64,000 nt of DNA from Accumulibacter sp. (GCF_031732815.1 NZ_JAVMKF010000268.1:270-64269), one strand, 5' to 3'. Shown: positions 3,414-36,768, counted from the stretch's first letter. The notes: a model not told the origin generated them from the letters alone. Translations and numbers: made by a program.

Positions 3414-3425
3414 AGGGTGCTGACC

Positions 3426-9008: not shown

Positions 9009-9021
9009 ATGGAGACAGCCG

Positions 9022-9321
9022 ATGTCTGATCAAGAAAAACCTGCCCTCGTCGAGAACATGCTCCTCTTGCGCAAAGAGGACTTCGACGATTTGCTCGACC
9101 GCGCTGCCGAGCGCGGTGCGGAGCGGTGCCTGTCGCACCTCGGCCTCGAAAACGGCCACGCCGCGCGTGACATTCGAGAGTTGCGTGATCTGCTTGAAGC
9201 CTGGCGCGATGCCCGCCATACCGCTTGGCAGACGACCATCAAGGTCGTCACCACAGGCATCCTGGCCGCGCTTCTGGTTGGTGCTGCCATCAAGCTCAAG
9301 CTGATGGGAGGTCCCCAATGA
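9022..9321 (+). CDS. DUF6127-like phage membrane protein (lysis-cassette associated), 99 aa
   Basis: AERGAERCLSHLGL...DIRELRDLLEAWR pattern plus a single C-terminal TM segment; SD GGAG. Confidence 0.6.
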   Translation: MSDQEKPALVENMLLLRKEDFDDLLDRAAERGAERCLSHLGLENGHAARDIRELRDLLEAWRDARHTAWQTTIKVVTTGILAALLVGAAIKLKLMGGPQ

Positions 9322-11570: not shown

Positions 11571-11588
11571 AGTTTTGTTCCTTTGGGG

Positions 11589-13637: not shown

Positions 13638-13640
13638 TCA

Positions 13641-18768: not shown

Positions 18769-18772
18769 GGTC

Positions 18773-21700: not shown

Positions 21701-22147
21701 AAACACCTGCGGCAGCATGCGGGCGGCCAGCTTGCCGGCCAGCTCCCAGCCGCTCTTGGCGCCTTCGTCGGGGGCCAGCTCATCGCACTCTTCGATGGTG
21801 ACGGCAACGCCGTCGTACATCAGCAGGTTGTTGTCGGCCAGGAAGCGGGCGAACAGCATGCGGTGCCAGTGCTGGTAGGCCACTTCTTGCACCAGGTGCT
21901 GCACATCTTGCTTGCCGTAAGTCGGGTTGGTGCTCTTCGAATCGCGGGTATCACCAAGCTGCTTGCCGTGGGTGCGCAGGCGGTTGCGCAACGCTTTCTC
22001 GTCATCGCTCAGAAAAGCTTCGGGCTTGTCGTGACCAACGCCCAGTTGCTCCACCGCCGCTTGCGCGGCAGTTTCAGCGACCGTGCGGGCCGCTTTGACG
22101 GTTTTTTCCAGCGCGCTGCGCAGGTCTTTGTCGAGTGCTTGCATCAT
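18773..22147 (-). CDS. pglX: BREX N6-adenine DNA methyltransferase PglX, 1124 aa
   Basis: TQLFTEPYMV, motif I LLDPCCGSGHF, motif IV variant ITNVPY; directly follows brxC. Confidence 0.92.
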   Translation of the reverse strand: MMQALDKDLRSALEKTVKAARTVAETAAQAAVEQLGVGHDKPEAFLSDDEKALRNRLRTHGKQLGDTRDSKSTNPTYGKQDVQHLVQEVAYQHWHRMLFARFLADNNLLMYDGVAVTIEECDELAPDEGAKSGWELAGKLAARMLPQVFKPGSPVFELTFAPEHQSELEQLLKDLPDTVFKASDSLGWVYQFWQADNKERINKSEVKIGADELPAVTQLFTEPYMVSFLLHNSLGAWWATRHPGKPCPVNLDYFRTLEDGTPAAGKFEGWPDSLADFKLLDPCCGSGHFLVAAFLMLVPMRMTAEGLSAKEAVNRVLAENIHGLEIDPRCVEIAVFAVALEAWRYPDASSKPLGVREIPAPNIACCGLKVAAKAQDWEALVPDEAPNADYVRQELRQLHASFSDAPLLGSLLDPARSLKNDLATSSFETLTALLRKALATERPPTLTNEVDDRWELALSAQGLLEAARLLDGRYELVITNVPYLSRGKQSEKLKDYCERHYDEGKNDLANVFLERCLELSQNGGSGVAQLVMPQNWLYQPRYTRQRKNLIQSFAWNLAAKLGPGAFDGITGEVVTVMLFTLSKKAPSKQAEFSGIDVTKVSNSEGKARALRSQELRQIAQQGLLENPDHVVRLDDVDAGHLLSDYATFSNGIQTGDYARFGRSFWEIAAFGSDWIRQQTTVEKTVLYGGCSQVLLWEQGSGALVDYVQEKLGGSTGAWLRGLDVWGKRGIQVSAMGSLPVSLYAGRAFDDNSVVILPKDESDLGAIWAYCSSAEYPIEVRKVSQSLKVRGPLIDVPFDKDRWQSEFESEYPNGLPNRSSDDPTQWLFHGDLKYSTAPLQVAVARLVGYAWPLEFDGENAQSNDERITVLASHADKDGIVCIPPVGREASAGDRLLNLMADAYGSDWSNDILAQLLTAADHAGKSLETWLRDKFFTQHCALFGNRPFVWHVWDGLRDGFAALVNCHKLDYKALEALIYTYLGDWIGRQKRDADSGVDGAQEKLAAAEALKKRLELILAGEAPYDIFVRWKPIEEQPIGWNPDLNDGVRLNIRPFLSVPDVGKKGAGVLRDKPKSLHWEKDRGSDVPSAPWYELGLHYGGKVGDRINDHHLTLNEKRAARAKLGKA

Positions 22148-22160
22148 GGGGAGTCAGGCC

Positions 22161-25100
22161 TCAGTGAAGGATGACCGGGCCGTTTTTCAGGGCCAGCGCG
22201 ATGGTTTGCTTGGCGTCCAGCAGCCAGGCGTCGATGTCTTCGTTGGTTTTGATGGTGCGGCTGGGCAGCTTGACGAACTGCGCCTTTGGCTCCATCAACT
22301 CGGCGGCGGCCACCAACACAGCGTCAAAGCGCGAGTCGATGGCAGCCACGCGGTCGGCGAACGATGAAAGCGACAGCCGATCAACCGTGGCCAGCACTTC
22401 GTCGGTGTTGGCCACTTGCACCTTGGGTGCATCGGTGAGGGTGAGCTTTTGGGCTGCGAGCAGGCTGTTGCGTTGTTCGGGCTCTAGCTGCTGCCAGTTG
22501 GTGTCGGCGTCCAGACGCGCCATGCCGTTCTTGTGGCGGGTCTGGTAATCGGTTTGCAGGCGGTTCAGTTCGTCGCGCAGCAACTGGGTGAGGCTGGCCA
22601 CCAGCGGCGTGACGGGATCAGGCTCCTCCAACAACTGGCGCTGCTGCTCCAGGTGCGTGACCTGTGCCACCAAAACCTCGGCCCCCGACATCCCACTGGC
22701 CTGGGCCAGCAGACGCTTGAGGGTGTTCCAGGCCGGCAGGCGCTTGTCGATGCGCTCGGCCAGATCCGTCCAGGTGTCGATGGCGGCGCTGAGTTCGTCG
22801 CGCTGGTTGTAGAGAGCCAATAGCTGCTCGTTGCCGGCTGTGAGGCGGATTTCTTCCAGTGCCTTCGTTTCAGGGCGCACCGGCCGTGGGGCCTCGCCAC
22901 CGGCGCGGTTGGCCAGCTCTTGCGCGCTGACCAGGAACTGCGGCACGTAGGCCAGCTCTTCGCCTTGCTTGGCGGTGAGGCCGACCTTCTGCAGCACCTT
23001 ACGAATCTGGATGCGCTGCGCCGCCGAGACAGTGGCCGACTCGACCTTGAACATGGTCTTGCCGATGACCTTGCGTTCCAGGTCTTTCGGGTCGATGGTC
23101 TGACCCTTCTCGTCCTGGGCGCGGATCAGCCCGGCCACCAGGAGTACCTGCAAGCCACCGTCCACCGCGTCACCCGGCCAGCCGTAGGTGGCGCCCTCGA
23201 AGTTCTTGCGGATGTCGATGCCCTTCTTGCCGCCAGCAATGAAGGCCAGGATGGCTTTGCACACCGAGTTCTTGGCGGGCTCGCCGTCGTCGCCCACGCT
23301 CTTGAGGGCATCTGGCGCGCCGTTTTGGGCCTTTTTCAGAACGTTTTCCCAACCAGCATGGTCGGCAATGTGGAACTGCGGGTAGAGCCGCTGCAAAGCG
23401 TTGGTGGCGGCCTCCAGCGTCATGGCCTGCAGGTCGGTACCCAGGATCTCGTTGCCACCGCCTTGGAAGACGCGAGCGCCCGAGAAAGCCTCTTGCAGCA
23501 GTTCCCGGATCTTGCCCTCAGCGGTTTGCTTGGTGGTCTCCATCGCCGAGCGGGCTTCGGTGCCCTCGGCGGTGTTGGGAACGCCCCGCTTGTCCAGTGT
23601 GGCACTGGCCGCCTTGAAGTCGATCAGATAGTGCCGCAGGTCATCGGCCGAGCGCTTGGGGATGAACACGAACACGGTGGGCGACTGGTTGCCCGCCTGG
23701 CGAGCGTCGGCACGCACCGAGTTTTCGTCGATGCTCCAGCCGTCACGCACCCAGACGCAGACCTTCTCGGCAGCGTCGCCGGGTAGTTGGGCGTCGAACA
23801 CAGGGAAGATGTCGCGTGTGACCTTGGAGGTGCCTTGGGTCAGCGACAGCTTGCGCACCATTTCGCCGAAGCGGCGGCGGATGCGATCGTCGCGCTCTGC
23901 GTCCACGCGGTGGGCCTCGTTGGCCAGGCTGTTACGTTGGCTAAGGAACTCGTCGTTCCAAGCGGCGCTTTCTTCGGTCTGGATGCGGTACTCGTCACCC
24001 ACCTTCATCAGCAGCTCGCACTTGTCGAGCACGCTCGGGAGCTTGCTGCGCAGCGCGCTGGAGCCTTGGGTGAGGTCTTCCACCAGCAAGTCAGCTAGGG
24101 TGTCGACAGTGGCGCGAATGCCGATTTCGTGATTGCTGCTGGCCAGCTTGTTGATGAGAAACACCAGGCCGCAGGACCGTGCCATCAGACGCTGGTCATC
24201 GGTGCCTTTGGCCCAGACCATGGTCTTCTCATGCACCTTGCGCGGCAGGATGCGCGACTGAAGCAGCTTGTCTGCTGCGTCGAAGTACAGGTAGTCCGCT
24301 GGCACCACGCTGCCGACCGGAGCGTCCACATTGGTCTGGATGACCTTGTGGATCATGGAGAGTTGGTTGCGCAGCTGGCTGTCGGTGCCGGTCTGGTCCA
24401 GCACGCGCAGTGTGTTCTCCCAAAAGCGACGGCGCACCGGCAGGATCGGGTAGTCCTGCGGGAAGAATTGAATGTCATCACCTCGGTGGCCGATGGTGGT
24501 GCCGGCCAAGTGGCGAGAGATTTCGCCAAGGTTGGTTTGCATCACCTTTTCGACCGGTGCCTTGGCCTCAGGCTTCTTGGCCAGGATGACCTGACGGATC
24601 ACTGCATCGACGTCGGCGTCGGAGAGCTCAACGCGGACGGTGAAGCGGCCTTCGAGCTTTTTGAGGTTGGAGGTGCCGGTGACAGCCGTCTGGCCGGTGC
24701 CGATGAACAGCATCTTGGCGCCGATGTTTTTGCAGCAGGCCTCGACCACTTCCTGCACGTCAATGGAGCGTTGGCTGTCTTCACCGATGTACTGTTGCAC
24801 CTCGTCGAGCACCACCAGGGTGAGGGGGAACTTGCCGTCGCGTGTTAGCGCCTGGCGAATGGCTTTGAGCATGTCGCCGCTGGAGACGTCCTGCACATAG
24901 GGGTACAGGTTGTTCAGTGTCTCGACGCAGGACGCTGGCGACGTGAACAGGTTGGGCTTAGCTTTGACCAGGGCCTCGTGCAACCCCTCGGCCACGTAGA
25001 AGTTGTCGAGCTCCTCATACCAGTCGAAGCCGCTCTTCTCAACATGACCCCGCACGGCCTCAAAAATGCCTTCATGCTGGAGCCACATGACGAAGCGTGC

Positions 25101-25601
25101 CACTGGGTACTGCTCGGGCAGGCCAACTGACTTGAACAAAATACCCAGCAGGGCCATGCGGACAGACTTGTCGCGCGAGCTGGAGCCCAACGTGCCAGAC
25201 GCGGCGTGCAAGCCGCCGTGGCGCTTCGCCTGAATACTGAGTTCCTTGAGCTGGTCGCTCACGCCTTGTGGCAGGTTCGCGATACCCCGCGCGGTAGCGC
25301 CGTCATCAAACGCGCTGTCGACCCAGAGCGCTCGCAGCATCTTGACCAAGTGCGATTTACCCGAGCCGTAGAAGCCGCTGACCCATACCGCTGGCTGCTC
25401 GGCCTGCTCGATATTCTTCAGGTAGACGTCGAGGATGTGTTCCAGGCCCTTTTCGTACTGGCCATCGCAGACAAATGTTTCAAGCTCGTACCGCAGGACG
25501 GACAGTGCCTGGTTGGTTTTTTCGTCATTGACGCTGGCCACGCCCTCGTTGACCAGCTTGCGGGTCGACGGGTCCTTTTGGTAGATGTCGCGATTGAGCA
25601 T
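22161..25601 (-). CDS. brxC: BREX P-loop ATPase BrxC, 1146 aa
   Basis: WVSGFYGSGKSHL Walker A, VLDEVQQY Walker B, YPILP; located between brxB and pglX. Confidence 0.92.
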   Translation of the reverse strand: MLNRDIYQKDPSTRKLVNEGVASVNDEKTNQALSVLRYELETFVCDGQYEKGLEHILDVYLKNIEQAEQPAVWVSGFYGSGKSHLVKMLRALWVDSAFDDGATARGIANLPQGVSDQLKELSIQAKRHGGLHAASGTLGSSSRDKSVRMALLGILFKSVGLPEQYPVARFVMWLQHEGIFEAVRGHVEKSGFDWYEELDNFYVAEGLHEALVKAKPNLFTSPASCVETLNNLYPYVQDVSSGDMLKAIRQALTRDGKFPLTLVVLDEVQQYIGEDSQRSIDVQEVVEACCKNIGAKMLFIGTGQTAVTGTSNLKKLEGRFTVRVELSDADVDAVIRQVILAKKPEAKAPVEKVMQTNLGEISRHLAGTTIGHRGDDIQFFPQDYPILPVRRRFWENTLRVLDQTGTDSQLRNQLSMIHKVIQTNVDAPVGSVVPADYLYFDAADKLLQSRILPRKVHEKTMVWAKGTDDQRLMARSCGLVFLINKLASSNHEIGIRATVDTLADLLVEDLTQGSSALRSKLPSVLDKCELLMKVGDEYRIQTEESAAWNDEFLSQRNSLANEAHRVDAERDDRIRRRFGEMVRKLSLTQGTSKVTRDIFPVFDAQLPGDAAEKVCVWVRDGWSIDENSVRADARQAGNQSPTVFVFIPKRSADDLRHYLIDFKAASATLDKRGVPNTAEGTEARSAMETTKQTAEGKIRELLQEAFSGARVFQGGGNEILGTDLQAMTLEAATNALQRLYPQFHIADHAGWENVLKKAQNGAPDALKSVGDDGEPAKNSVCKAILAFIAGGKKGIDIRKNFEGATYGWPGDAVDGGLQVLLVAGLIRAQDEKGQTIDPKDLERKVIGKTMFKVESATVSAAQRIQIRKVLQKVGLTAKQGEELAYVPQFLVSAQELANRAGGEAPRPVRPETKALEEIRLTAGNEQLLALYNQRDELSAAIDTWTDLAERIDKRLPAWNTLKRLLAQASGMSGAEVLVAQVTHLEQQRQLLEEPDPVTPLVASLTQLLRDELNRLQTDYQTRHKNGMARLDADTNWQQLEPEQRNSLLAAQKLTLTDAPKVQVANTDEVLATVDRLSLSSFADRVAAIDSRFDAVLVAAAELMEPKAQFVKLPSRTIKTNEDIDAWLLDAKQTIALALKNGPVILH

Positions 25602-25615
25602 GAGCTTCCCCTTGT

Positions 25616-26167
25616 TCAGAATTCTTTGTCTGCGGTGATCGGTACGGCGAGGTAATTCCAGCCGTCGTATCCATCCAGCAAGCGGTAGTTGTTGTCTTCA
25701 TAGCTGCCGGGGAAAAACACCAGCAGGCGTCCCTTCACCTTGGGCGCGAGCTTGTCCACGACTTCCTTGACCTTCAGGAAGCCGAACAGAGAGCCGACGC
25801 CCTGCAGCGCCACGACAAATTCCTCGCTGACGCATCTGTCTTGCAGGAACGTCTCGAACTCGGCTTCGATGTAGCTGAGGTACTTGGGCAGCAGCGTGGA
25901 CAGCAGGTTGGGTTTTTGGAAGTAGCTCTTGGCGTACCGTTGGGACGCCAGCCAATTCGGGAACGAATCGGTCAAGTCGAACAACGCCCAGTCATGGCCT
26001 GCCGCACGGGTGGCGATCTCAAACTCGTCGACTTTGGCCCGCAGGCGCAGCTCTTCTGTCTCGTGATAAACGCAGAAAATGACGCGCTGGGCGGCGGCGG
26101 CGTCATCGCGCCATGGCACAGCCACGTACTTGCTGTAAGACTGGGTCAATCGCTTAATTCTGCTCAC
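25616..26167 (-). CDS. brxB: BREX protein BrxB (DUF1788), 183 aa
   Basis: LLVFFPGSYEDNNYRLLDGYDGWNYLAVPI pattern, size and position. Confidence 0.85.
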   Translation of the reverse strand: MSRIKRLTQSYSKYVAVPWRDDAAAAQRVIFCVYHETEELRLRAKVDEFEIATRAAGHDWALFDLTDSFPNWLASQRYAKSYFQKPNLLSTLLPKYLSYIEAEFETFLQDRCVSEEFVVALQGVGSLFGFLKVKEVVDKLAPKVKGRLLVFFPGSYEDNNYRLLDGYDGWNYLAVPITADKEF

Positions 26168-26954
26168 GGAGCCACTCCATTTCCTGCGCAGTGATCAAGT
26201 TCGGGAAAAGCACTTCGACCACCTGGCCGACGCGCTTGAGTGAGATCCAGCCCCGGCGTGATGCGTCCTCGGCCAACTCGATCGTCTTTTCAAATGAACA
26301 GTCGAGCATTCGAGTGAAGTCACTCTTGAGCAGCGACTCGCCGCGCAGACCGCTGACGTAGCCTAGAAGCAGCGCCAACGAGACCGTGCCTGGCGTCGCC
26401 ACAGCACGGGCCCGCACTTTGCGAACGCGGCCAGCCAGGTGACCCGCCTGAGTCCAGGACGAATTGATGTTCTGTGCGGTGGACTTGAGCGTGGCCTTGC
26501 TGAAGCGCCCCGGCTCTTGCGCATCGATGAACTCTTCCATCGCCTCACGGGTGACGGTGGCTCCTTCCTGGAAGCCCAAGACAAAGGGAGCCGTGGCCCG
26601 AAGCAGGGGGTCACGCGAGTAGGCGCAAAGCGCTGCCAATAACGGCTGTCCATCCACATCGCGTTGCCAGAAGAAACGCAGGGCACGGAACACCAACAAG
26701 CTGGGATCGAGCGCGTAGAGGTCAGCCAGGTGCCGGAAGGTCAGCGTCCGCGTTTTGCCCGAGCGCTTGCCCAGGCAATTGGCAGTCTGGATGGCCTCCA
26801 GGTAGTCGGCCCTGGCCGCGTCGGCTACGTCCTCAAAGGACAGCAGGGCGCGCAGTTCGGCCAGCATCATTGTTCGGGCGGTATGGACGCCGCCGCGCTC
26901 ATAACTGAACCCGAGTCGCTCCAGCTTTTTGTTGTGTTTGTTCTCTACGTTCAC
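26154..26954 (-). CDS. brxA: BREX protein BrxA-like (DUF1819-related), 266 aa
   Basis: First gene after the WYL regulator and overlaps brxB; assigned mainly by position. Confidence 0.7.
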   Translation of the reverse strand: MNVENKHNKKLERLGFSYERGGVHTARTMMLAELRALLSFEDVADAARADYLEAIQTANCLGKRSGKTRTLTFRHLADLYALDPSLLVFRALRFFWQRDVDGQPLLAALCAYSRDPLLRATAPFVLGFQEGATVTREAMEEFIDAQEPGRFSKATLKSTAQNINSSWTQAGHLAGRVRKVRARAVATPGTVSLALLLGYVSGLRGESLLKSDFTRMLDCSFEKTIELAEDASRRGWISLKRVGQVVEVLFPNLITAQEMEWLREQN

Positions 26955-26973: not shown

Positions 26974-27903
26974 TCAGTCGGCATCGGCTTCGATCCGTTG
27001 TTGATCAGGGGAGCGATAGCCCGGGGCCAAGACGGCATTACGCACACCGTAAATGGCGAGGTGGTCTTTCAACCAAAGCCGGTACTCAGGTCCGCGCAAG
27101 CTGTGATCTGGGGAACAGTCCACACTCCATTTGCGCAGGATGTATCCGGCTGTAGCGGCCCGAAGCTTCATTCGAAGCACACCGCCCTGCATGCTGTAGT
27201 CCATCTCGGTGATCTCTGGTCGGGGCTGATCCGGGTGCGGCACCAGCTCCAGCTCGACGATCCGGGTCCACTGAATGTCTTGGTCGCTCATCTCGTGGGG
27301 CGCCACAGGCTGGCCCTTGAGCACCGCTGGACGATTGATCCGGGTGATGACGAAATCCCGGAATTCCTGCGACTTTCGGTCGAAGGCGCGGACGTGCCAG
27401 CGCAGACCGTTGTCGATCAGCGCGAAGGGGACGATCTCTCGCTCGGTGCGCCCACTGGAGATGGAGTGGTACTCGATGCCGAGCGGACACTCCTGGTGAA
27501 TCGCCCGAGTCACGCTAGCCAGCACATCCAGATCAGGATGCGTGAGCCGTGACGGGCTCTCGCTGATCACCCATGCCTTTAGCCGCATCGGCTCCCCGTC
27601 GCCGAAACCTTGGGTCAGCCAAGACAGGACGCGCTCAGGCGGGAAGTCAAAGACCGGACGGAAGTCCGGGCCCAGGACGTACGACTTGCCCTTGGAGTCG
27701 TAGTCAATGTTGCCGGGCGCCATATCTTTGTAGAGCGCCAGATCCCGACTGGCCGCCGCTGACTGGATTCCGAACCGCGAAACCAGGTCTTGGCGACGGA
27801 TCTCCCCGATAAAGCGCACGCGCAACTCCACGAATGCGAGGCGGTCGCGCTGTGGCTGGGTTAGATCTGCAAGCTGTTCGTTCGACATCCTGTGGGTGCT
27901 CAT
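26974..27903 (-). CDS. brxR: WYL-domain transcriptional regulator BrxR (wHTH-WYL-WCX), 309 aa
   Basis: N-terminal HTH (RRQDLVSRFGIQSAAASRDL) and WYL motif REIVPFAL...RWHVRAFD...FRDFVITRI. Alternative ATG at 27888. Confidence 0.88.
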   Translation of the reverse strand: MSTHRMSNEQLADLTQPQRDRLAFVELRVRFIGEIRRQDLVSRFGIQSAAASRDLALYKDMAPGNIDYDSKGKSYVLGPDFRPVFDFPPERVLSWLTQGFGDGEPMRLKAWVISESPSRLTHPDLDVLASVTRAIHQECPLGIEYHSISSGRTEREIVPFALIDNGLRWHVRAFDRKSQEFRDFVITRINRPAVLKGQPVAPHEMSDQDIQWTRIVELELVPHPDQPRPEITEMDYSMQGGVLRMKLRAATAGYILRKWSVDCSPDHSLRGPEYRLWLKDHLAIYGVRNAVLAPGYRSPDQQRIEADAD

Positions 27904-27939
27904 TCGGGTTAGCGATGGCTGGTGAGGGCTGTTGCGGAA

Positions 27940-27969
27940 AGTATATCCTGTGCTCTAGAATGAGTCCAA
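27940..27969 (-). promoter_or_regulatory. Putative sigma70 promoter for brxR-BREX operon
   Basis: Minus strand TTGGAC-18 nt-TATACT in the AT-rich divergent intergenic region. Confidence 0.5.
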
Positions 27970-28056
27970 TAAACTATGATCGAATGGTGGTGTGTCGTAA
28001 AATGATAATCACAATCGTTCGGTAAGGCGCCATAGATCTAGGAAAGGGACCGGTAA

Positions 28057-28605
28057 ATGAACCAGCACTCAGACCCACTAGGCTTGTTTGTGAAGGCTGT
28101 GACCTTCGCTGCAGACAAGCACCGGAATCAGCGCCGCAAGGATGCCGATGCGTCGCCCTACATCAACCATCCAATTGCCTTGGCCAACGTGCTGGCGAAC
28201 GAAGGGGGCGTCAACGATGTGGTGGTTTTGTGCGCAGCGGTCCTGCACGACACGATCGAGGACACCGAGACCACACCCGAAGAGCTCATAGCGGTTTTCG
28301 GGCCGCAGGTCACCGCAACAGTGCTGGACGTGACCGACGACAAGTCTTTGGACAAGCATGTCCGCAAGCAGCGTCAGATTGAGCACGCACCGCACATCTC
28401 AAAAGAAGCCAAGCTCGTGAAGCTGGCCGACAAGATTTGCAACCTGCGGGACATCTTGGCGTCACCGCCGGCAGACTGGTCGCCCGAGCGCAAGCAAGGC
28501 TATTTCGACTGGGCAGCCAAAGTCGTGGCGGGTGTTCGCGGCGTCCATCCTGAACTCGAAGCCGTGTTTGACGGACTCTTGGCCCGCCATGCCGAACTCC
28601 GCTGA
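28057..28605 (+). CDS. Stand-alone HD-domain (p)ppGpp hydrolase-like protein (MESH1/small alarmone hydrolase), 182 aa
   Basis: HRNQRRK...PYINHP, VLHDTIED, VTDDKSL and VKLADKICNLRD SpoT/MESH1 motifs. Confidence 0.88.
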   Translation: MNQHSDPLGLFVKAVTFAADKHRNQRRKDADASPYINHPIALANVLANEGGVNDVVVLCAAVLHDTIEDTETTPEELIAVFGPQVTATVLDVTDDKSLDKHVRKQRQIEHAPHISKEAKLVKLADKICNLRDILASPPADWSPERKQGYFDWAAKVVAGVRGVHPELEAVFDGLLARHAELR

Positions 28606-28606
28606 A

Positions 28607-30463
28607 ATGCATCTCAAGCCGGAGGCGCTGGCGCGCTACGGCCTGCCGGACATCGCCTATCCGATCGAAAGCGCTGATCTGCAGGCCGCACTGACAGGGG
28701 GCGGGGAACTGCCGCTGGCCATGATGCTGCATGGCCTTCAGGAGGTTGCGCGCGACGGGGAAACTGACTGGAAGCACCTCGAGCCAGCAATGAGTCGCTT
28801 GTCCGAGTTGCTGGCGCCGGAAGACGAACGCGATGTGATCTCGGCCGCCGGCGACACCTGGTGGATCGAGATCGGGCCAGTCGACCTCAGCGGCAAGCTG
28901 GTTACCGTGCAGCGTGGTAACGACTTGATTGCCGCGATCACACCACGGGACGACGGCCGGCTAAGGGTCGCGGTATTCCGCCCGCTGGATGCCAAAAGTG
29001 CGGAGTACCTGACTGGTCTGGGCCAGGTGCCGCACCCGGAGCACGGGGTTTGCATGCGCGAGAACAACTGGGAGTACGCGCTCGACTGCTCTGCGGGAAA
29101 TGGCAACTACTATGCAGCCGACCGGGGCGAGGCCTACCTGTCCTACTGGGAGAAAGGCCTGGGCATCAGTTGGGACGGTACTGAAGTTCCCGAGTGGCGC
29201 ACGCAGTTGAGCCTCGTTGCCCGTCCGGCTGCGCAAGCGGTTGTCGATCTTGGCGTCCACCACTCCTTGTCCGGGGATGGCGATCTGGAGCCCGATGATG
29301 ATGCGAGCGATGAGGCCGATGACGACTCCACGCCACTGGGCTGGCGCAGCAAGCGTCAGCAGCGCCGAACAGTTCAGGGCCGATTTGCTGGCTGTCTCTT
29401 GGGTGGCGCCGTCGGAGACGCGCTTGGGGCACCAGTTGAGTTCATGAAGCGGACCGAGATCCTTCGCAAATTCGGTCCCAAGGGAATCACCCAGTACGCG
29501 CCAGCCTACGGCGGCCTCGGCATGATTACCGACGACACTCAAATGACCCTGTTTACAGCCGAGGGGCTGATACGGGCGTGGGTGCGCGGCTGCATGAAGG
29601 GCATCACCACCTATTCCGGAGTGACGGCTCATGCTTACCTGCGCTGGCTTCAGACCCAAGGCGAACGTCCGACGTGCGACATTGACTTCGGCACCGACGA
29701 AACTGGCTGGCTCTTTCAGCAACGGGAACTCCACAGCCGACGTGCCCCTGGCAACACCTGCCTCGCGGCGCTGCGGGCGATGAAGTCGCTCGGGGAACCC
29801 GCCCGAAACGACAGCAAAGGGTGCGGGGGCGTCATGCGGGTCGCACCCGTAGGGTTATTCGCTTGGCGCCTGCGCCAGCAGGACTCACCGCACGACGCTT
29901 TCCGCTTGGGCGCCGAGTTGGCAGCCCTGACGCACGGACATCCGACCGGTGCGCTGACAGGCGGTGTGCTGGCAGTTCTGATCCTTGCGCTAACCGACGG
30001 CGCCTCATTGCCCGAAGCGCTGGTCGTATCGAAAGCCATCCTCCGATCCGAGCCTGGACATGAGGAAACGCTGCGTGCGATCGAGTTGGCCGAGACGCTG
30101 GCTGCGAGTGGTCAACCTCATGAAGCGGCGATCTCACAGCTTGGTCAGGGGTGGATCGCCGAAGAGGCGCTGGCCATCTCAATCTACTGTGCGCTCGTGG
30201 CACGAAATTTCAAACACGGCGTCATCCTCGCCGTGAACCACGACGGTGACTCTGACTCGACAGGCTCAATCACCGGCAACTTGCTGGGCGCCATGCACGG
30301 CGTCCGAGCGATACCAGCCGAATGGCTGGAGCCTCTGGAGTTGCACGAAGTCATCACGTCCCTTGCGGAAGACCTGTACGCCTTCAAAGATTGGGACATA
30401 GGCGAATACAGCGAGAACGTAGAGATGAACCAGCGCATTTGGCAGAAATACCCCGGGTTCTAA
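28607..30463 (+). CDS. ADP-ribosylglycohydrolase (DraG/ARH fold) with about 250-aa N-terminal unknown domain, 618 aa
   Basis: GAVGDALG, TDDTQMT, NDSKGCGGVMR and GDSDSTGSITG. ATG 28607 lies 1 bp after the HD stop. Confidence 0.88.
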   Translation: MHLKPEALARYGLPDIAYPIESADLQAALTGGGELPLAMMLHGLQEVARDGETDWKHLEPAMSRLSELLAPEDERDVISAAGDTWWIEIGPVDLSGKLVTVQRGNDLIAAITPRDDGRLRVAVFRPLDAKSAEYLTGLGQVPHPEHGVCMRENNWEYALDCSAGNGNYYAADRGEAYLSYWEKGLGISWDGTEVPEWRTQLSLVARPAAQAVVDLGVHHSLSGDGDLEPDDDASDEADDDSTPLGWRSKRQQRRTVQGRFAGCLLGGAVGDALGAPVEFMKRTEILRKFGPKGITQYAPAYGGLGMITDDTQMTLFTAEGLIRAWVRGCMKGITTYSGVTAHAYLRWLQTQGERPTCDIDFGTDETGWLFQQRELHSRRAPGNTCLAALRAMKSLGEPARNDSKGCGGVMRVAPVGLFAWRLRQQDSPHDAFRLGAELAALTHGHPTGALTGGVLAVLILALTDGASLPEALVVSKAILRSEPGHEETLRAIELAETLAASGQPHEAAISQLGQGWIAEEALAISIYCALVARNFKHGVILAVNHDGDSDSTGSITGNLLGAMHGVRAIPAEWLEPLELHEVITSLAEDLYAFKDWDIGEYSENVEMNQRIWQKYPGF

Positions 30464-30512
30464 ATGAAAACGGTGGCCACTGGAAACAAACACCTCGCAT
30501 GGGAGTAATGAC

Positions 30513-31013
30513 ATGACCGCTCAGATTGCAGAACGACTGCACTACCAGGGAGAGGACGTTGCCATGTGCACGAACCCCCTCAGCGACTATTTCGCCATGG
30601 GGGGCACGAACCCGCGCTTCGAGTCCAACTGCACGGCCTTGTGGCGTGGCTACGTTGGTAGCTGGGAAATCGTGGATGACCGCCTGTACCTGGTGGGGCT
30701 GAGCGGAACGCTAGAGGGCGGAGCGGATGCAACTTTGGCAACCATCTTCCCGGACTTTCCCGATCGCGTGTTTGCCCACTGGTACTCCGGCACGATCCGC
30801 ATCCCCCAGGGCAAACAGCTCGAGTATGTCCACATGGGCTACGGCAGCACCTTCGAGCGGGACTTGTTCTTGGATATCGAGCGAGGTGTGATTGTGGCCA
30901 CCCGGGTTCGTCATAACGGTACCGCCGAGTCTGATAACGCTCCCGAAAGCTACGAGGTCGGCGCCATGACGGTGTTCCCTCGAAGTGGTAAGGGTGAGGG
31001 GGAGTCGGCGTGA
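30513..31013 (+). CDS. Hypothetical protein, 166 aa
   Basis: Natural amino-acid composition (CTALWRGYVGSWEI); coupled to the next gene by GTGA overlap. Confidence 0.65.
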   Translation: MTAQIAERLHYQGEDVAMCTNPLSDYFAMGGTNPRFESNCTALWRGYVGSWEIVDDRLYLVGLSGTLEGGADATLATIFPDFPDRVFAHWYSGTIRIPQGKQLEYVHMGYGSTFERDLFLDIERGVIVATRVRHNGTAESDNAPESYEVGAMTVFPRSGKGEGESA

Positions 31014-31657
31014 TCTATCTCTACTGGTACCTCGGCATCGGCGCGGTTGTCCTTGCCATCGTCTACGGCGCACATCACCTGACAAAGGAGAAAGAGTCTG
31101 ACTCCCTTCGTGAGCTGCTCGAAGCCGTCAACCCGGATCGCAAGAAGCTTTCCTACCGCATCCTCAACAACATCGTCGCCCCCGTCCTTGCGGCCATCCT
31201 CGTGGTCGCCGTCTGGCCAGTGGCGATCTACATGAAGGTCAAGGAGATGCTCCAGAAGAAGGAAAGCTACGTGTCCCCGGAGGAACGCGAATTTGCAGTC
31301 GAGCGCGAACACCTGCTGGAGCGACTGACGGCGCAGGAAATCGAGAGGCGTGAGGTTGTCACAGATCCGCTCAAGGCTGCACCTGATTTGCCCTTTGGCC
31401 ACCTTAATGCTGCGTGGCAGGAATTCCTCCAAGGCAAAGCCGATGGTGCCGAGCTGTGGTCGTTCTCGGCACAGTGGCAGACGACATGGGGACGCAAGGA
31501 ACTGCGGTGTGGATACGCGGTGGTCCAGGACGGAGCGCCGGGCGCCCACTTTCTGACGGTGTGGAAAGACATCCCGGAAGAGGCGGAAGGCGGTGGCAGT
31601 GCCAAAAAGGCGAGCGCTGGCGACATCCCAGGCTGGCTCAGGAAGCAGGCTGACTGA
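31010..31657 (+). CDS. Hypothetical membrane protein (two N-terminal TM helices), 215 aa
   Basis: Hydrophobic segments YWYLGIGAVVLAIVYG and IVAPVLAAILVVAVWPVAIY. Confidence 0.65.
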   Translation: MIYLYWYLGIGAVVLAIVYGAHHLTKEKESDSLRELLEAVNPDRKKLSYRILNNIVAPVLAAILVVAVWPVAIYMKVKEMLQKKESYVSPEEREFAVEREHLLERLTAQEIERREVVTDPLKAAPDLPFGHLNAAWQEFLQGKADGAELWSFSAQWQTTWGRKELRCGYAVVQDGAPGAHFLTVWKDIPEEAEGGGSAKKASAGDIPGWLRKQAD

Positions 31658-31690
31658 GAGTCAGGCGCGACGACTCATCAAGGAGATCCC

Positions 31691-32122
31691 ATGCAATACA
31701 AGAAAGGCGATCGCGTAAAGCATCCGAAGAAGCCGGATTGGGGCATTGGCCAGGTGCTTGCCGACAGTACCGGCGGAACGGTACGAATCTTCTTCACCCA
31801 TGCCGGCGAGAAAACGATGTCACTGGATTTCGTGCAGCCCGAGAAGCTGTCGGGCGATGTGGCGTCGAGTCCGATCCTGGACCAGTTGAATCTGACCGCG
31901 CAGCCCACCAAGGATGCGAAAGGGAAAGTTCTCTGCACGAATTGCGGCGCGCCGACGCAGTTTGGCGAAACAGCAAATCCAAAGCGGTATCAATTGGGTT
32001 GGTGCGAGCCCTGTTTTAAGCACAGTCAGCGAACGTTCAAAGACGAAACCACTGGGGAAACGCGCTACATAGACGAATTTCGAACGATCGACGGTATCAA
32101 GAGCCGCTATGGCCCGCACTGA
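31691..32122 (+). CDS. DUF3553-like SH3-barrel protein with Zn-ribbon, 143 aa
   Basis: GDRVKHPKKPDWGIGQV N-terminus; CTNC...CEPC; SD AAGGAG. Confidence 0.65.
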   Translation: MQYKKGDRVKHPKKPDWGIGQVLADSTGGTVRIFFTHAGEKTMSLDFVQPEKLSGDVASSPILDQLNLTAQPTKDAKGKVLCTNCGAPTQFGETANPKRYQLGWCEPCFKHSQRTFKDETTGETRYIDEFRTIDGIKSRYGPH

Positions 32123-32130
32123 GGAACAGC

Positions 32131-32889
32131 ATGTACGAAATTGAAATGCATGAGATGTCGGAAGCATTCTTCCCCTGCTGGAAGGCAGCCGGCATCCACT
32201 TGAGCAAACAGGCCGATGGCGGGATCCAGTCATGGCTCCGCGCACACCCCTATCCGCCGTTCCTGGAGCATCTGTCGTTCCGTCTGGGCAATCAGCTGTT
32301 CTTCGTGCGCGTCGAGGACGTCGATGGGAAAGTGCGGGGCCCCGGAAACCCGCAGGGGTTCATCACGGCTGCCAGGATGGCTAACGGTCGAGCCTGCATC
32401 CTGCCGATGAAGAAGAAGCTTTTCGGTGGCGCCTGGGTGGCAGACATGCCGGGATGGGGCTTGCTGGACCCGGATACCAGAAAGCCGATCGATCCCGTCG
32501 CTTTGGTCACGGACCAGAAGATCGAGATGACGCCATGGGAGGTTCACGACATGGCCGTGCAAGTGGTCCGCGACCATCTGGACAAGCAAGGCTTCGAGTT
32601 GATGTCCTGGCAGGGCAATCCGGAGGTGGATCCCTCAATCTGGTTCATCGGTCAGTCCAAACGGCCGGAGTGGGTGGTAGTGCGTTCCGCAATATTTCCG
32701 GCCAATAGCGCCGAGCGCCCGAGCAACTGGCAGGCGATTGCAGCCAGCTGCGCCAAGATGAGCGCGATTGGTCACTTTGCCTGTGTCGCATTAGCGAGCG
32801 TAGACGAGATCTTCGACCCCGGCGCGGAGAAACCTATGCCGTTGTGGCGTGGGCATGGAATGCATGTGCGTTTCACCGGGCTGGAGTAA
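32131..32889 (+). CDS. Hypothetical protein, 252 aa
   Basis: SD GAGG; 8 bp after the previous stop. Confidence 0.65.
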   Translation: MYEIEMHEMSEAFFPCWKAAGIHLSKQADGGIQSWLRAHPYPPFLEHLSFRLGNQLFFVRVEDVDGKVRGPGNPQGFITAARMANGRACILPMKKKLFGGAWVADMPGWGLLDPDTRKPIDPVALVTDQKIEMTPWEVHDMAVQVVRDHLDKQGFELMSWQGNPEVDPSIWFIGQSKRPEWVVVRSAIFPANSAERPSNWQAIAASCAKMSAIGHFACVALASVDEIFDPGAEKPMPLWRGHGMHVRFTGLE

Positions 32890-32892
32890 GGC

Positions 32893-33681
32893 ATGGGCCT
32901 CCGGATCGCGCTCGCTGTGCTGATAACTCTGTTCAGTGTGTATGCCGTCTGGATCGAGCCGAACTGGTTAGACGTCAGTACTCACGACATGCGATCGGAC
33001 CTCGCAGGGAAAGGCATCCGAGTCGTTCAACTCTCTGATTTGCACATTCAAGACTTCAGTCACCGTGAGGTGGAAGTTGCCAACCGAGTCAAATCCCTTA
33101 AGCCCGATTTGGTAATCCTTTCTGGCGATGTAATTGATAGGCTGGATCGGCTTCCGACTCTTCATTCCTTTCTTGCGGCTCTGGGCGATACGCCCACCGT
33201 TGCTGTTTTGGGTAATTGGGAATACTGGGCTGACGTTGATCTTCATGCGTTACGCGACGAGTACCGACACCACGGGATACGGCTTCTGGTGAATGAGGTG
33301 GCTTCTTATCGGGTTCGGCTGCGTACTCTTCACATCGTGGGCATGGATGATTTCACTGCTGGCCAACCAGACGGTGGACTCTTGAACGCACCCCTTAAGG
33401 GCGGCACAGCGGTGTTAGTGCAGCACTCGCCAGGCTATTTTGAAAAATTGCCGACCAATCTCCGTTCAGGAATATTCAACCTGTGCCTTTCCGGGCACAC
33501 CCATGGTGGTCAGATCACTCTTTTTGGGTTGCCCATATGGAGGCCCCCGGGCAGCGGTCCTTTTGCTTCGGGGTGGTATGAGACGACGGCCTGCAAACTC
33601 TACGTCTCGAAGGGACTCGGGACGTCACTTCTACCAGTCAGATTTGGGGCGCGTCCAGAGATCGCTGTGTTTGATCTTTGA
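32893..33681 (+). CDS. Calcineurin-like metallophosphoesterase (YkuE-like) with N-terminal TM/signal, 262 aa
   Basis: SDLH, GDVID, GNWE, HSP and GHTHGGQ motifs. Confidence 0.88.
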   Translation: MGLRIALAVLITLFSVYAVWIEPNWLDVSTHDMRSDLAGKGIRVVQLSDLHIQDFSHREVEVANRVKSLKPDLVILSGDVIDRLDRLPTLHSFLAALGDTPTVAVLGNWEYWADVDLHALRDEYRHHGIRLLVNEVASYRVRLRTLHIVGMDDFTAGQPDGGLLNAPLKGGTAVLVQHSPGYFEKLPTNLRSGIFNLCLSGHTHGGQITLFGLPIWRPPGSGPFASGWYETTACKLYVSKGLGTSLLPVRFGARPEIAVFDL

Positions 33682-33705
33682 TCTGCGATTAAGAAGGGAT
33701 TAAAT

Positions 33706-34683
33706 ATGACCATGGCCAATATCACCGTCGTCAAGGGCAACATCGTCAGGAAGACCGACTGCGACGGCGTCGTCAATTCGGCAAATCCGAACCTGCGAGC
33801 AGGTAGTGGAGTCTGTGGCGCAATTTACGCAGCAGCAGGGCCCCGTCTCGAACCCTACAGCTCGCAGTTCGCGCCTCTTCAAATAGGCGAAGCGTTGGCA
33901 ACACCTGCTTTTGATATGGATTGTCGCTACATCATCCACACCCGAGGCCCCAAGTATTACGAGGATGCCGACCCTCCCGGTAGCCTCGAGAAAGCCATGC
34001 GCAACACCATCGCTTTGGCTGATGAAAATGGCTTAACCCGATTAGCTGTTCCTGCGATTTCGATGGGTGTGTACGGCTACCCAGCGGAGGAGGCCATTCC
34101 AATCCTGGTGCGTGTTGCATCCCAAATGGCAGGGGTGCTTCAGAACCTACTGGAAATTCGTTTCGTGGTGGTGAGCGATGAACTCTTGCACCTGTTCCGT
34201 CGGTCGATTGAACAGCATGTCACATCCGCCGATGAATGCACCCCGCAGGCGCTCGTACCCCTGAGAGTTTCAAGAGTTAAGGAGTCAGAGGTTCGCGACA
34301 AGCTGGAGCAGTTTCATATTTTGACTTATGCCGAGGACGGATTCTCACCACTGGATATTCACGCACGACGACTCGGTATCGATCGCGAGCTTGTGAAGGC
34401 ATTTGTGAGTGAAGTCAACGATCGATCCGCAGTTGGCTCGCTTCATCCGAAGGCGCCCGTCAGTGCTGTGCCGCGTGAACTGGTCCGCGACCGGCAGGAC
34501 GTAGATGCGCTGGCTGCAAGCATTGGGGAGCTCCTGCGTGTCAATCGTGAAACGATCAAAGCCAGACGTTTGGCCTTCGATTTTCGTACGCCGTCGGTAC
34601 CTGAGTTCACAGTTGCTGCGTTGAATTCTGCGATGCGTGCGCAGGAGTCTGGCTTGGAAGAAATTCTGATATTGGAAATGTGA
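33706..34683 (+). CDS. Macrodomain protein (ADP-ribose binding/hydrolase) with unknown C-terminal domain, 325 aa
   Basis: VVNSANPNLRAGSGVCGAIYAAAG, IIHTRGP and PAISMGVYGYP. Confidence 0.88.
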   Translation: MTMANITVVKGNIVRKTDCDGVVNSANPNLRAGSGVCGAIYAAAGPRLEPYSSQFAPLQIGEALATPAFDMDCRYIIHTRGPKYYEDADPPGSLEKAMRNTIALADENGLTRLAVPAISMGVYGYPAEEAIPILVRVASQMAGVLQNLLEIRFVVVSDELLHLFRRSIEQHVTSADECTPQALVPLRVSRVKESEVRDKLEQFHILTYAEDGFSPLDIHARRLGIDRELVKAFVSEVNDRSAVGSLHPKAPVSAVPRELVRDRQDVDALAASIGELLRVNRETIKARRLAFDFRTPSVPEFTVAALNSAMRAQESGLEEILILEM

Positions 34684-34713
34684 TGTTTGGTATCAATTTG
34701 TGGGGAGTAACGG

Positions 34714-35496
34714 ATGGCAAAGCCTGTTGAAATCGGTTCCCGGAGCTTCCGGACCCAGAAAAGCGCTCTTGATCACTACAAGGAAATCCTGCATCGGTAT
34801 CGGGACGGGGAGCGTGTCGCCGACCCGAGCGATCACGCCGACCTCGTGTCGCTCATCGAGCGGTATGACCCGATTCTTGAAGATGTCGGTGAGCCGGCGA
34901 AGGGGTGCGGGCAGATCGGCCACTTCGAGCGGCGCTTGAATACCGGGACGGGCTGGAGCAACTCAGGCTTCTGGGTGGTGCGCCAAGATGGGACTGCCAC
35001 GGACTTTTCGTACATTTGGGCCGTCAAAGGCCTTGCGGGGGACCGGTCGAAGGACTTCTATGGTGCGTGCCGTGAGGCAGTCGCACTCGACCTGGTCCTA
35101 GCTAAGAAGGGTGCCTTTGCAGAGTATGGGGATGACCAAGGGCGGGTTGAGTGTGAACTGACCGGCGTGCTGGTCACCATCGATGACGCACACCTGGACC
35201 ACGCTTGGCCGTACTTTTCACACTTGGTGAGTGGCTTTCGGGCTGCCAGGGGCTGGTCCAGAGACATCCCGGATGGTGTCGTGTCGGCTCCGGCGGATGG
35301 CCAGACGACGGCCACGTTCATCGATACCTCGGTGGCCGATGCCTTCCGGGCGTACCACCACGACCAGGCAATCCTCCGGATACTTTCTCGGACAGCGAAC
35401 CTGCAGACCGCCAGCCAGGCTCGACGGCCACGAGTCGCGCGTCCCGTCCGTGTTCCGGATCGATACAACGTACCATTAGATCTCGGACGCAGATGA
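34714..35496 (+). CDS. DCL/DUF3223-like protein with possible HNH-like C-terminus, 260 aa
   Basis: IGSRSFRTQKSALDHYKEIL...FWVVRQDGTATDFSY; C-terminal CELTG...HLDH...RTANL. Confidence 0.6.
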   Translation: MAKPVEIGSRSFRTQKSALDHYKEILHRYRDGERVADPSDHADLVSLIERYDPILEDVGEPAKGCGQIGHFERRLNTGTGWSNSGFWVVRQDGTATDFSYIWAVKGLAGDRSKDFYGACREAVALDLVLAKKGAFAEYGDDQGRVECELTGVLVTIDDAHLDHAWPYFSHLVSGFRAARGWSRDIPDGVVSAPADGQTTATFIDTSVADAFRAYHHDQAILRILSRTANLQTASQARRPRVARPVRVPDRYNVPLDLGRR

Positions 35497-35541
35497 AGGG
35501 TCGGAGTTCTATCGCCCAAGAGGCTGAAATCGAGGTCGCAC

Positions 35542-36768
35542 ATGCATAAACCGTTTGGACAAATCCCCTGGCCCAACCCCGTTGCTGCATCCAACGTTGC
35601 TGACGCGGCGCGCCATGTTGAAAGCTCGCTGGATGACGACCCCGATCCCGATGTCCACCCTGGCTCCGATCGGTTCCCCCGGCCGGGATTAGATATCCCG
35701 AGCGCCGATGACTCTCAAGAGGTGGTTGATGAAGTCGACCCCGCGTCTCTACCGGTTAGTCAGGGACAAGACGAGGAAAGTCATGAAGGCGCTGCCGGCG
35801 GAGTCGTCGAGGGGGGCGTCGAGTACTTGGCCTTTTACAAGTCTTTCCGGGATGTCATGAGGGCTCCGGCGCGCAAACGGTGGGGCATTTTCTTCATCAA
35901 GAAGCGCTGTTTTGCTTTGGCCACCGACATGAGCTTCAGCACCGGGGAGTCATTCGCCGATTGCCTAGACGCCCTGGCGGCATTTCTGTACACGCACGAG
36001 CTGTATCACTACCGGTTCGATGCCCACTGCCTTCAGATGGAAGCAACCGGCGGGTTACCGGTGTACAGGCCATACCGTAGGCTGGTCGCGAAACGGCCGA
36101 TCAACGAATGGCATGAGGAGTCGATCGCCAATTTCTACGGCCTGAAAGCGGTTCAGCCGAGCCCCAGATTTCCCTACCCTCAGCCCGTATACGACTACTT
36201 GTGGGACCTGGTGGCTAACAGCCCGGGCGCATACGCCGGAGGCATAGACAAGCAGCAGAGGTCCCGAAAGGAACACATGGTTCAGCAGGCCAGCGCAGCG
36301 TTTGGGAACGCTGGTCCGACCGTTTGGCAGGATCTGGTCAAGTCGACCATTCGCACCGGAATGGGCCTCTCAAAGCCACGCGAATCCACACTGAGCTCCT
36401 ACTTGCACCTGGACAATTGCCCGGTTTACTGGATCGACTGGGTCAAAGGTGGAAAGAGTGTTTTGGTGCCATACGCGGCGTCCGTTGCTGAGATCAACAA
36501 CGATTTCATCAGGCGGTATCTAGCAGGGGTTCAGGACCACCACAGCGATCACAGCTACTACCGGATCGACAACGGGGAGAAGGTTAAGCTGCCAAATCCG
36601 CACCGCGCTGATCTGACCAATCGCGAGTTCCACAACATCATCGGCAAGGCCGGGATGACCAGCCCTCAGTTCTACAAAGAGAGGGATCGAACGTCTGTTT
36701 GGCGAAAAGGTGTCCCTCGCAGCCCGGTGCTGCCGCCGCGTTTTCCATCGAAGGGTGGAGCGAGTTAG
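35542..36768 (+). CDS. HExxH metallopeptidase-like domain fused to C-terminal HicA-like domain, 408 aa
   Basis: THELYH...EESIANFYG; C-terminal DHSYYR...VKLPNPHRADL...IIGKAGMT. Confidence 0.6.
   Translation: MHKPFGQIPWPNPVAASNVADAARHVESSLDDDPDPDVHPGSDRFPRPGLDIPSADDSQEVVDEVDPASLPVSQGQDEESHEGAAGGVVEGGVEYLAFYKSFRDVMRAPARKRWGIFFIKKRCFALATDMSFSTGESFADCLDALAAFLYTHELYHYRFDAHCLQMEATGGLPVYRPYRRLVAKRPINEWHEESIANFYGLKAVQPSPRFPYPQPVYDYLWDLVANSPGAYAGGIDKQQRSRKEHMVQQASAAFGNAGPTVWQDLVKSTIRTGMGLSKPRESTLSSYLHLDNCPVYWIDWVKGGKSVLVPYAASVAEINNDFIRRYLAGVQDHHSDHSYYRIDNGEKVKLPNPHRADLTNREFHNIIGKAGMTSPQFYKERDRTSVWRKGVPRSPVLPPRFPSKGGAS

Follow-up and report, generated by a model that had tools for sequence, protein, structure and literature searches.

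A 64,000-nucleotide stretch of DNA from Accumulibacter sp. (GCF_031732815.1, NZ_JAVMKF010000268.1:270-64269; the window henceforth) carries an array of ten open reading frames (ORFs), here numbered g1 to g10, at positions 28057-36768 of the plus strand. The array lies divergent from brxR, the regulatory gene that heads a BREX defence operon (Table 1). Every junction between the ten ORFs is either an overlap (17 bp for g1/g2 and 4 bp for g3/g4) or a gap of 3-49 bp. The ten co-directional genes of the original prediction, which a model had made from the sequence alone, were confirmed at the positions it gave. Named domains were found in six of the ten genes, namely an HD hydrolase, an ADP-ribosylglycohydrolase (ARH), DUF3553, a metallophosphoesterase (MPE), a Macro domain and DUF3223/HamC, and no Pfam, NCBIfam or PHROG match was obtained for g3, g4, g6 or g10. 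A PADLOC scan of the cluster recognized only g9, apart from a marginal PDC-S10 match for g7; the PHROGs matched by the cluster proteins were generic hydrolase families, and a megablast search of the 8.7-kb cluster against sequenced phage genomes returned no match.

Table 1. Features of the brxR-array locus, with positions counted from the first nucleotide of the window (aa, amino acids; MAG, metagenome-assembled genome).
Feature	Position	Strand	Description	Evidence
BREX operon	10632-26954	-	type 1 BREX operon with nested DUF932-GmrSD (predicted)	Pfam matches
brxR	26974-27903	-	WYL regulator, heads BREX operon, divergent from array	Pfam WYL 2.9e-12
Divergent intergenic region	27904-28056		153 bp; brxR-proximal ~60 bp conserved	
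g1	28057-28605	+	182 aa, single-domain HD_4, Mesh1/small-alarmone-hydrolase-like	Pfam HD_4 2.5e-16
g2	28589-30463	+	624 aa, two-domain ARH	Pfam ADP_ribosyl_GH 3.8e-78, residues ~265-600
g3	30513-31013	+	166 aa, translationally coupled to g4	no family match
g4	31010-31657	+	215 aa, two hydrophobic N-terminal stretches resembling membrane helices, then uncharacterized C-domain	
g5	31691-32122	+	DUF3553 N-domain, Cys-rich zinc-ribbon-like C-terminus	DUF3553 6.5e-12
g6	32131-32889	+	252 aa, conserved; independent cassette	
g7	32893-33681	+	YaeI-like MPE	Metallophos 5e-10, NF008460 YaeI 4.9e-29
g8	33706-34683	+	MacroD-type macrodomain (residues 1-175), 150-aa C-extension	Macro 1.2e-30
g9	34714-35496	+	DUF3223/HamC-type	PADLOC HamC 1.8e-82, full-length; PDB 2k0m 3e-6
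g10	35542-36768	+	ImmA/IrrE-like HExxH peptidase, HicA-like C-terminal domain; independent cassette	
Right boundary of shared mobile segment	36924-36925		99.3-100% identity to six metagenome/MAG copies stops exactly at 36924	

The original prediction had read four of the products, the HD hydrolase, the ARH, the phosphoesterase and the macrodomain, as erasers of nucleotide signals and ADP-ribose (ADPr) marks, with no ADP-ribosyltransferase (ART), alarmone synthetase or cyclase in the window. Family scans upheld both points: the four domains are of hydrolase type, no cognate writer lies in the cluster or the window, and none of the scanned window proteins matched an ART, SIR2, RelA_SpoT synthetase or cyclase family. 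Across the genome, the RelA_SpoT synthetase domain (PF04607) was matched only twice, in frames of 810 and 742 aa that we take to be RelA and SpoT; the domain being confined to these two long proteins, no small alarmone synthetase was found in the genome. The single DarT of the genome lies on contig C288 (L238, 3-305; L numbers denote loci), where the end of the contig truncates it. After it come a gene for a DarG-like macrodomain protein of 360 aa (L238, 306-1388) and one for a type III Res-like helicase; this is a canonical DarTG locus in its own right.

The first two genes of the array encode a predicted hydrolase pair. The g1 product aligns with the SpoT/RelA hydrolase region of TIGR00691 (positions 1-122) and keeps the HD...ED motif (LHDTIEDT). 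Gene calls and an alignment of homologues placed the start of g2 at ATG 28589, not at GTG 28532. The metal-site motifs of the ARH, DDT and DxDS(T), are invariant among homologues; its AlphaFold2 (AF2) model, with a predicted local distance difference test (pLDDT) score of 85, found its best folds in the Protein Data Bank (PDB) in Tri1 (6dre), MJ1187, DraG and ARH3, and the NCBIfam Tri1 model matched it at 1.4e-19. The N-terminal domain of g2 (~230-260 aa) is highly conserved, with the invariant stretch MRENNWEYALD as an example, and has no Pfam match and no sequence match in the PDB. Foldseek searches with the full-length model gave matches to the ARH domain and none covering the N-domain. Its modelled core, consisting of a helix (61-75), five strands (84-129) and a second helix (135-144), resembles the TY-chaperones as described by Iyer et al. 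(2022; PMC9503650), a comparison made by description only.

Long ARHs of this kind are widespread (60-98% identity, several phyla). Because the gene was found in 2 of the 19 genomes of the genus, the second being G005, it is an accessory gene there. An HD gene adjoins the ARH also in L016, L091, L092, L093 and the congeneric genome G005, and lies near short-form ARHs in L065 and L082. Two relatives at 66-70% identity to the long ARH are fusions: P0101 and P0098 carry McrBC regulatory-subunit (McrC) or dual-specificity phosphatase domains, P0098 being the phosphatase fusion.

The other two enzymes, g7 and g8, likewise remain side by side in L092 and L235-237. The best NCBIfam models for g8 are O-acetyl-ADP-ribose deacetylases of the MacroD/YmdB type; its C-extension has no Pfam or PADLOC match, and the macro protein has no relative in IMG/VR. 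Relatives of its macrodomain (55-61% identity) occur fused to ARH domains of a different subfamily (26% identity), and these fusions support a functional link between ARH and Macro at the level of the families.

On the opposite strand, BrxR heads an operon whose gene content and order, judged from domain matches and gene positions, assign it to type 1 BREX, with brxA, brxB, brxC, pglX, pglZ and brxL all in one operon. The order is BrxR (WYL), an unmatched ORF of 266 aa at the brxA position, BrxB, an ORF of 1146 aa at the brxC position (faint BrxC-PglY_N match), PglX, DUF932, GmrSD, PglZ (weak match) and BrxL. Precomputed domains on an identical brxR gene are WHD_BrxR, WYL and BrxR_CTD. The array does stand back-to-back with BREX, as had been claimed, brxR being divergent from it. 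A sigma-70-like promoter for brxR (TGGACT-17-TATACT, 27968-27940, minus strand) lies in a block of the intergenic region that is nearly invariant across five loci, and the side facing the plus-strand genes varies. The BREX operon lies downstream of prophage tail and lysozyme genes at 1-10255. In G005, the same prophage tail region (96% identity) is followed by a different defence system at the BREX position.

Homologues of brxR with 76-96% identity flank array modules at L011, L012/L094, L091, L092, L235-237 and G005, and in nine of 13 viral loci. At L156/157 and L240/242/251, too, BrxR keeps its adjacent position.

Synteny was surveyed from five different anchor genes, the long ARH, g6, g10, g8 and, in viral contigs, BrxR, because identical copies say nothing about selection. 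Exact copies of g6 were found in ~40 assembly blocks, each of which also holds the other nine genes and BREX; these near-identical copies are one recent element and are uninformative on selection for the set. Elsewhere, the full set of ten was found in one congener only, G005. There, a 76%-identical brxR is followed by an extra gene, X, and an HD gene of 89% identity, after which identity is 99% from the ARH to g9. Such a patchwork within the cargo region of a single prophage is direct evidence of mosaicism through recombination. Gene X (498 aa; L091:7952-9448, L092:1355-3043 and, in G005, L110:17792-19285; 91-95% mutual identity) lies between brxR and HD-ARH at these loci and may serve the HD-ARH module as sensor or effector. 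It is absent from the window and has no Pfam, PADLOC or PDB match.

In the ARH survey, 80 genome loci with 10-kb flanks were searched by tblastn with the other nine genes, which were almost absent. The closest loci show how the content changes. At L092 (ARH 90% identical), the order is BrxR, X (562 aa at this locus), HD, ARH, three unrelated genes in place of g3-g6, MPE, Macro and DUF3223; at L091 (94%), BrxR, X, HD and ARH are followed by insertion sequences. At L094 (82%), the order is BrxR, ARH, a 169-aa gene, a uracil-DNA glycosylase (UDG)-like gene and HipBA, and L156 likewise has BrxR, ARH, the 169-aa gene and the UDG-like gene. L011 consists of BrxR, ARH and DUF3223; at L096 the ARH adjoins McrBC at a prophage end, and at L097 it lies next to a type I restriction-modification (R-M) system. 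The replacement genes of L092 and L094 have no Pfam or PADLOC match.

The remaining anchors gave a similar picture. Solitary copies of g6 include one at L102, whose neighbours are a WYL regulator, Gabija and a DUF6079-type system, and one in the MerR-vWA island of L098. Around g10, the other cluster genes were nearly always absent from 43 metagenome loci, at one of which g10 directly follows brxL. With g8 as anchor, L235-237 have BrxR, g3, g4, MPE, Macro, a g9 remnant and other genes, without HD-ARH and without g5-g6; a g8 relative at 60% identity lies in an unrelated context. In the viral contigs, the divergent arm of the nine BrxR-anchored loci mentioned above has one or more of the cassette families (ARH, 169-aa gene, DUF3223 or X); the combinations vary, and some arms have no ARH. 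The genes thus largely fail to co-occur elsewhere (80 ARH loci; g6 and g10 mostly solitary), the outcome that the original prediction had itself named as telling against its single ten-gene system, and L092 and L235, at ~90% identity, already differ in content. At 10-20% divergence the set splits into modules that are swapped, lost or found alone beside R-M, McrBC, Gabija and other BrxR/WYL islands, often on predicted prophages. Judged from gene neighbourhoods, HD-ARH, g3-g4 and MPE-Macro keep together as stable units, and g5, g6, g9 and g10 are singletons.

Neighbours were tallied at ~65 ARH loci with crude gene calls. They included NrtR-Nudix (3), WYL (3), HD (3), HAD (3) and Metallophos (4) genes, besides helicases and nucleases; 5'-nucleotidase genes also recur downstream of ARH relatives, and short-form ARH relatives, too, have NrtR-Nudix and WYL regulators as neighbours.

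Erasers without a coupled writer have been sought before. Iyer, Burroughs, Anantharaman & Aravind (2022; Viruses 14:1977, section 3.8, PMC9503650) looked for ADPr-deconjugating enzymes of this sort and described widespread 'ARG-centric' systems, which combine an ARH with a WYL or Nudix one-component repressor and a phosphatase (R-P, calcineurin-like, alarmone-type HD or HAD), and also with predicted chaperones (vWA, SseB, TY-Chap1-3), variable Macro/NADAR domains, a restriction endonuclease (REase) and ARPP. They proposed that such systems reverse ADP-ribosylation by viral ARTs, so the central idea of the original prediction had already been published as a prediction. Our own crude tally of ARH neighbours turned up the same regulator and phosphatase families. 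Their paper does not mention BREX, and we found no experimental test of the ARG-centric prediction in the literature. The present locus resembles these systems in having an ARH with no coupled ART or sirtuin in the window scans, a WYL regulator (BrxR) located 153 bp upstream of the array and divergent from it, coupled phosphatases (the HD_4 gene that overlaps the ARH start and the Metallophos gene in the array), a variable Macro gene, a possible REase-fold gene in g6, which its model only weakly suggests, and variable modules that come and go between close relatives. It differs in that the WYL regulator is BrxR, common to the BREX operon; that no R-P phosphatase, vWA, SseB or recognizable ARPP occurs in the array; that the ARH bears a strongly conserved N-domain; and that BrxR-divergent arms with other cassettes and no ARH exist. 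We conclude that the locus is a new example of the predicted ARG-centric kind, set within a mosaic BrxR-divergent array, and is neither one system nor new in kind.

Other known systems share single features with the locus. BrxR-family regulators are described as regulating adjacent defence systems (Picton et al., 2022, PMC9122601; Luyten et al., 2022, PMC9122589) and as accompanying diverse ones (PMC9122601). The present BrxR likewise stands at the head of a type 1 BREX operon and has homologues beside diverse defence systems; the divergent side holds in addition a recurrent, shuffled array that BrxR may control. The ARH is like Tri1, the Tre1 immunity protein, and DraG in its fold and intact metal-binding Asp motifs, Tri1 being the top structural match. 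It is unlike them in its extra 260-aa N-domain, in its ~20% identity, and in having no Tre1, DraT, ART or type VI secretion system (T6SS) gene adjacent in the window scans. In lytic T4-like phages, orphan antitoxin-like (DarG-like) enzymes act in counter-defence against DarTG1 (PMC11825919). They share with the present genes an eraser without a cognate writer in a phage-bacterium conflict, whereas the genes here sit with the defence cargo of a lysogen. The macrodomain is of MacroD rather than DarG type and has no DarT beside it, the DarT of the genome having its own DarG. As in Mesh1 and other small alarmone hydrolases (SAHs), g1 is a single HD_4 domain with the HD...ED motif; unlike them, it is translationally coupled to an ARH and lacks a cognate small alarmone synthetase in the locus and the genome, and its substrate may be a phosphorylated ADPr derivative rather than (p)ppGpp or (p)ppApp. 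Finally, g9 matches the HamC profile of Hachiman type II (HamA-HamB-HamC) but has no HamA (DUF1837) or HamB helicase among its neighbours, PADLOC finding HamC alone. The g9 family directly follows the ARH in L011, accompanies the 169-aa gene without an ARH in L245-247 and persists only as a remnant in L235; judged by this distribution, DUF3223 is in this setting a free-standing cassette of defence islands.

The explanation that we favour, and consider probable as a whole, is that a defence island adjoining the tail and lysis genes of a prophage has a variable cargo arm, which the ten genes form and which is transcribed away from a BrxR-type WYL regulator. The cassettes of the arm, of one or two genes each, are HD-ARH, g3-g4, g5, g6, MPE-Macro, DUF3223/HamC and the HExxH-HicA-like gene, and recombination moves them between islands. 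The core consists of the WYL regulator, the HD hydrolase with the two-domain ARH, the calcineurin-like phosphoesterase and the macrodomain, and corresponds to the ARG-centric systems. In such an arm, BrxR would repress the divergent genes and keep expression low until infection. The ARH would then strip ADPr that an invader ART has put on host or defence macromolecules, the macrodomain might deal with other ADPr linkages or with O-acetyl- or phospho-ADPr, and the HD and MPE enzymes might break down the released phosphorylated nucleotide products or alarmones. The other cassettes would be independent defence-island genes and not subunits of one machine. Of the original prediction, this account keeps the eraser enzymes without a writer and gives up the single ten-gene system and the claim to novelty.

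A further step is doubtful, though it can be sketched: under BrxR, the ARH and the other erasers might form an anti-anti-restriction layer that keeps BREX, DUF6079-type, McrBC, type I R-M and GmrSD systems working, either by clearing BREX or restriction proteins of the ADPr that phage ARTs attach or by making phage DNA restrictable through the removal of its ADP-ribosyl or other sugar adducts. Such a layer would explain why the ARH occurs beside or fused with restriction components and in a common BrxR promoter region.

Several points weigh against our favoured explanation. BrxR and the array are linked only by their adjacency; no clear BrxR operator palindrome was seen in 27904-28056, and no array-facing operator was found. 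Phosphatases or regulators stand beside the ARH at a minority of the tallied loci. BrxR-divergent arms can do without the ARH (L235, L244-247), and the term 'ARG-centric' may describe one cassette only. Read from the sequence, g7 has at its N-terminus a hydrophobic segment that resembles a membrane anchor and follows the positive-inside pattern; its catalytic domain may therefore lie outside the cytoplasm, where it would be unable to process cytoplasmic ADPr. Coverage of the array in a metatranscriptome-labelled run was low and BREX-like and could come from DNA, making the run weak evidence of low-level expression. Lastly, we infer both the substrate of the ARH and the direction of the benefit from sequence and gene context.

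Protection against T6SS effectors is conferred by SAH enzymes and by orphan homologues of Tri1, and an orphan-immunity array is an alternative we regard as unlikely but worth stating. The ARH would act in the manner of Tri1 on T6SS ARTs, the HD hydrolase on Tas1-type (p)ppApp synthetases and the small proteins on polymorphic toxins, consistent with Tri1 as the best fold and NCBIfam match and with small, unrelated, co-directional genes that lack cognate toxins. The neighbourhoods point elsewhere, being nearly always BREX, DUF6079-type, McrBC, type I R-M, Gabija, GmrSD or prophage ends rather than T6SS or polymorphic-toxin loci; no Pfam immunity-protein family matches g3, g4 or g6 (g5 is DUF3553), and the ARH-McrC fusions point to DNA-restriction settings. 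A counter-defence role for the prophage seems improbable. Erasers that neutralize host DarTG, CmdTAC, toxSAS or Thoeris, in the manner of the orphan enzymes of T4-like phages, would suit an array by tail and lysis genes with relatives at the ends of predicted viral contigs, and the host genome does have DarTG elsewhere; with the published DarG-like case (PMC11825919) there is also a precedent. Yet the moron-like position, divergently paired with a BREX-type repressor, is typical of cargo that protects a lysogen, the examined flanks of many relatives, which lie in chromosomal islands, contain no phage genes, and neither IMG/VR, for g8, nor the sequenced phage genomes, for the cluster, yielded a relative.

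The two remaining alternatives concern how far the genes belong together. Tight spacing in one orientation suggests a single transcript, contigs of the RNA-labelled run bridge gene junctions, and the whole set recurs at 99% identity or more in the ~40 metagenome blocks and G005 (HD 89% there), as would be expected if all ten products cooperated and were co-inherited as one integrated system. The synteny data contradict this reading, which we regard as very improbable: the identical copies are one recent element, the content differs at ~10% divergence (L092, L235), and at greater divergence ARH, g6, g8, g10 and BrxR are each found without most of the others. At the other extreme, the cassettes might have gathered by chance at a recombination hotspot, with a coincidental ADPr theme and housekeeping nucleotide or ADPr detoxification as their role. 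That each cassette can stand alone, and that many ARH relatives occupy ordinary metabolic neighbourhoods, would fit; that HD-ARH and MPE-Macro adjacency recurs, that ARH-Macro, ARH-phosphatase and ARH-McrC fusions exist, and that the published survey (Iyer et al., 2022, PMC9503650) independently found the association with WYL/Nudix and defence genes all speak against it, and there is little probability in this reading either.

Host-encoded erasers of phage-made ADP-ribosylation have been predicted and never demonstrated. The present element combines compactness with abundance in activated sludge, and it occurs in natural variants that have or lack gene X, HD-ARH and g3-g6, a series suited to assigning roles cassette by cassette. 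The side of BrxR opposite the defence operon emerges as a site where cassettes from a defined pool land repeatedly; as PADLOC sees only HamC here, this bears on the annotation of defence islands and on what BrxR-type regulators control.

Among the other genes of the array, the g3-g4 pair was seen again in L235-237 (91/88% identity) and in L120 (53/29%). PDB sequence searches (phmmer/profile) with g3 and g5 gave nothing useful. Co-occurrence of g3-g4 with Macro, even in L120, raised the idea that g3 might be a cryptic ART and g8 the matching antitoxin, which was not adopted as no ART motif was seen. L120:886-13010, from a metagenome with 48% GC, is a co-directional array of g3-like, g4-like, DUF3857-transglutaminase, Macro and DUF3293 genes, several uncharacterized genes, a g10-like gene and a NERD-UvrD helicase; by its predicted content it is a distant second case of g3-g4 travelling with a macrodomain. 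g5 is missing from L092 and L235.

g6 has 1317 homologues. Its AF2 model (pLDDT 76) has an alpha-beta-beta-beta-alpha-beta topology in the C-terminal half, and Foldseek found nothing significant in the PDB or BFVD. REase-fold proteins (SwaI, Hjc, tRNA endonuclease and DdmD) are over-represented among the sub-threshold matches (E >= 0.04), which only weakly suggests a resemblance of this half to PD-(D/E)xK nucleases. For g10, no Pfam or PDB match was found; the motifs HELYHY...E and W.EE..AN.Y, ImmA/IrrE-like in appearance, are invariant in 15 homologues down to 46% identity, as is the C-terminal pattern H.S.H..IDNG..K.PN.H..EF.NI.GKAG, which fits HicA. At L235 the position of g10 is taken by an HTH_3-Peptidase_M78 protein.

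The 169-aa gene, Cys-rich and zinc-ribbon-like (L092:5492-6001; also L094, L156, L157, L240, L242, L244-247 and L251), is the commonest BrxR-divergent occupant in viral contigs. It occurs with or without an ARH, often with DUF3223, and is absent from the window. The UDG-like gene of L094 (12457-13218; 253 aa) lies two genes after the ARH and before HipBA; it shows UDG-superfamily-like motifs by eye (GITPGP ... HPSG) and has no Pfam match.

At the right boundary of the mobile segment, assembly contigs of a DNA run also break at 36924. Beyond it lie porin, trpC, trpD and trpG genes, with no tRNA at the boundary. An empty site was sought in congeners via the right flank and was not found, the relatives having ~64-79% identity and the flank being in part a multicopy repeat: a stretch of ~126 bp at 37210-37337 matches at least ten dispersed copies (75% identity) in the congener G006 and is probably a repeat of the repetitive extragenic palindromic (REP) or miniature inverted-repeat transposable element (MITE) type. 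One DNA contig from the activated-sludge run X10 joins 28551 to 35924, skipping 7.4 kb; the join is probably spurious, because its anchor is only 21 nt, and could otherwise represent a deletion variant without g2-g9. Just past the right boundary in the metagenome copies, L001:14277-16508 encodes a 743-aa protein with Druantia DruA-like and Tn5-type transposase domains (Tnp_DNA_bind, DDE, Dimer_Tnp_Tn5).

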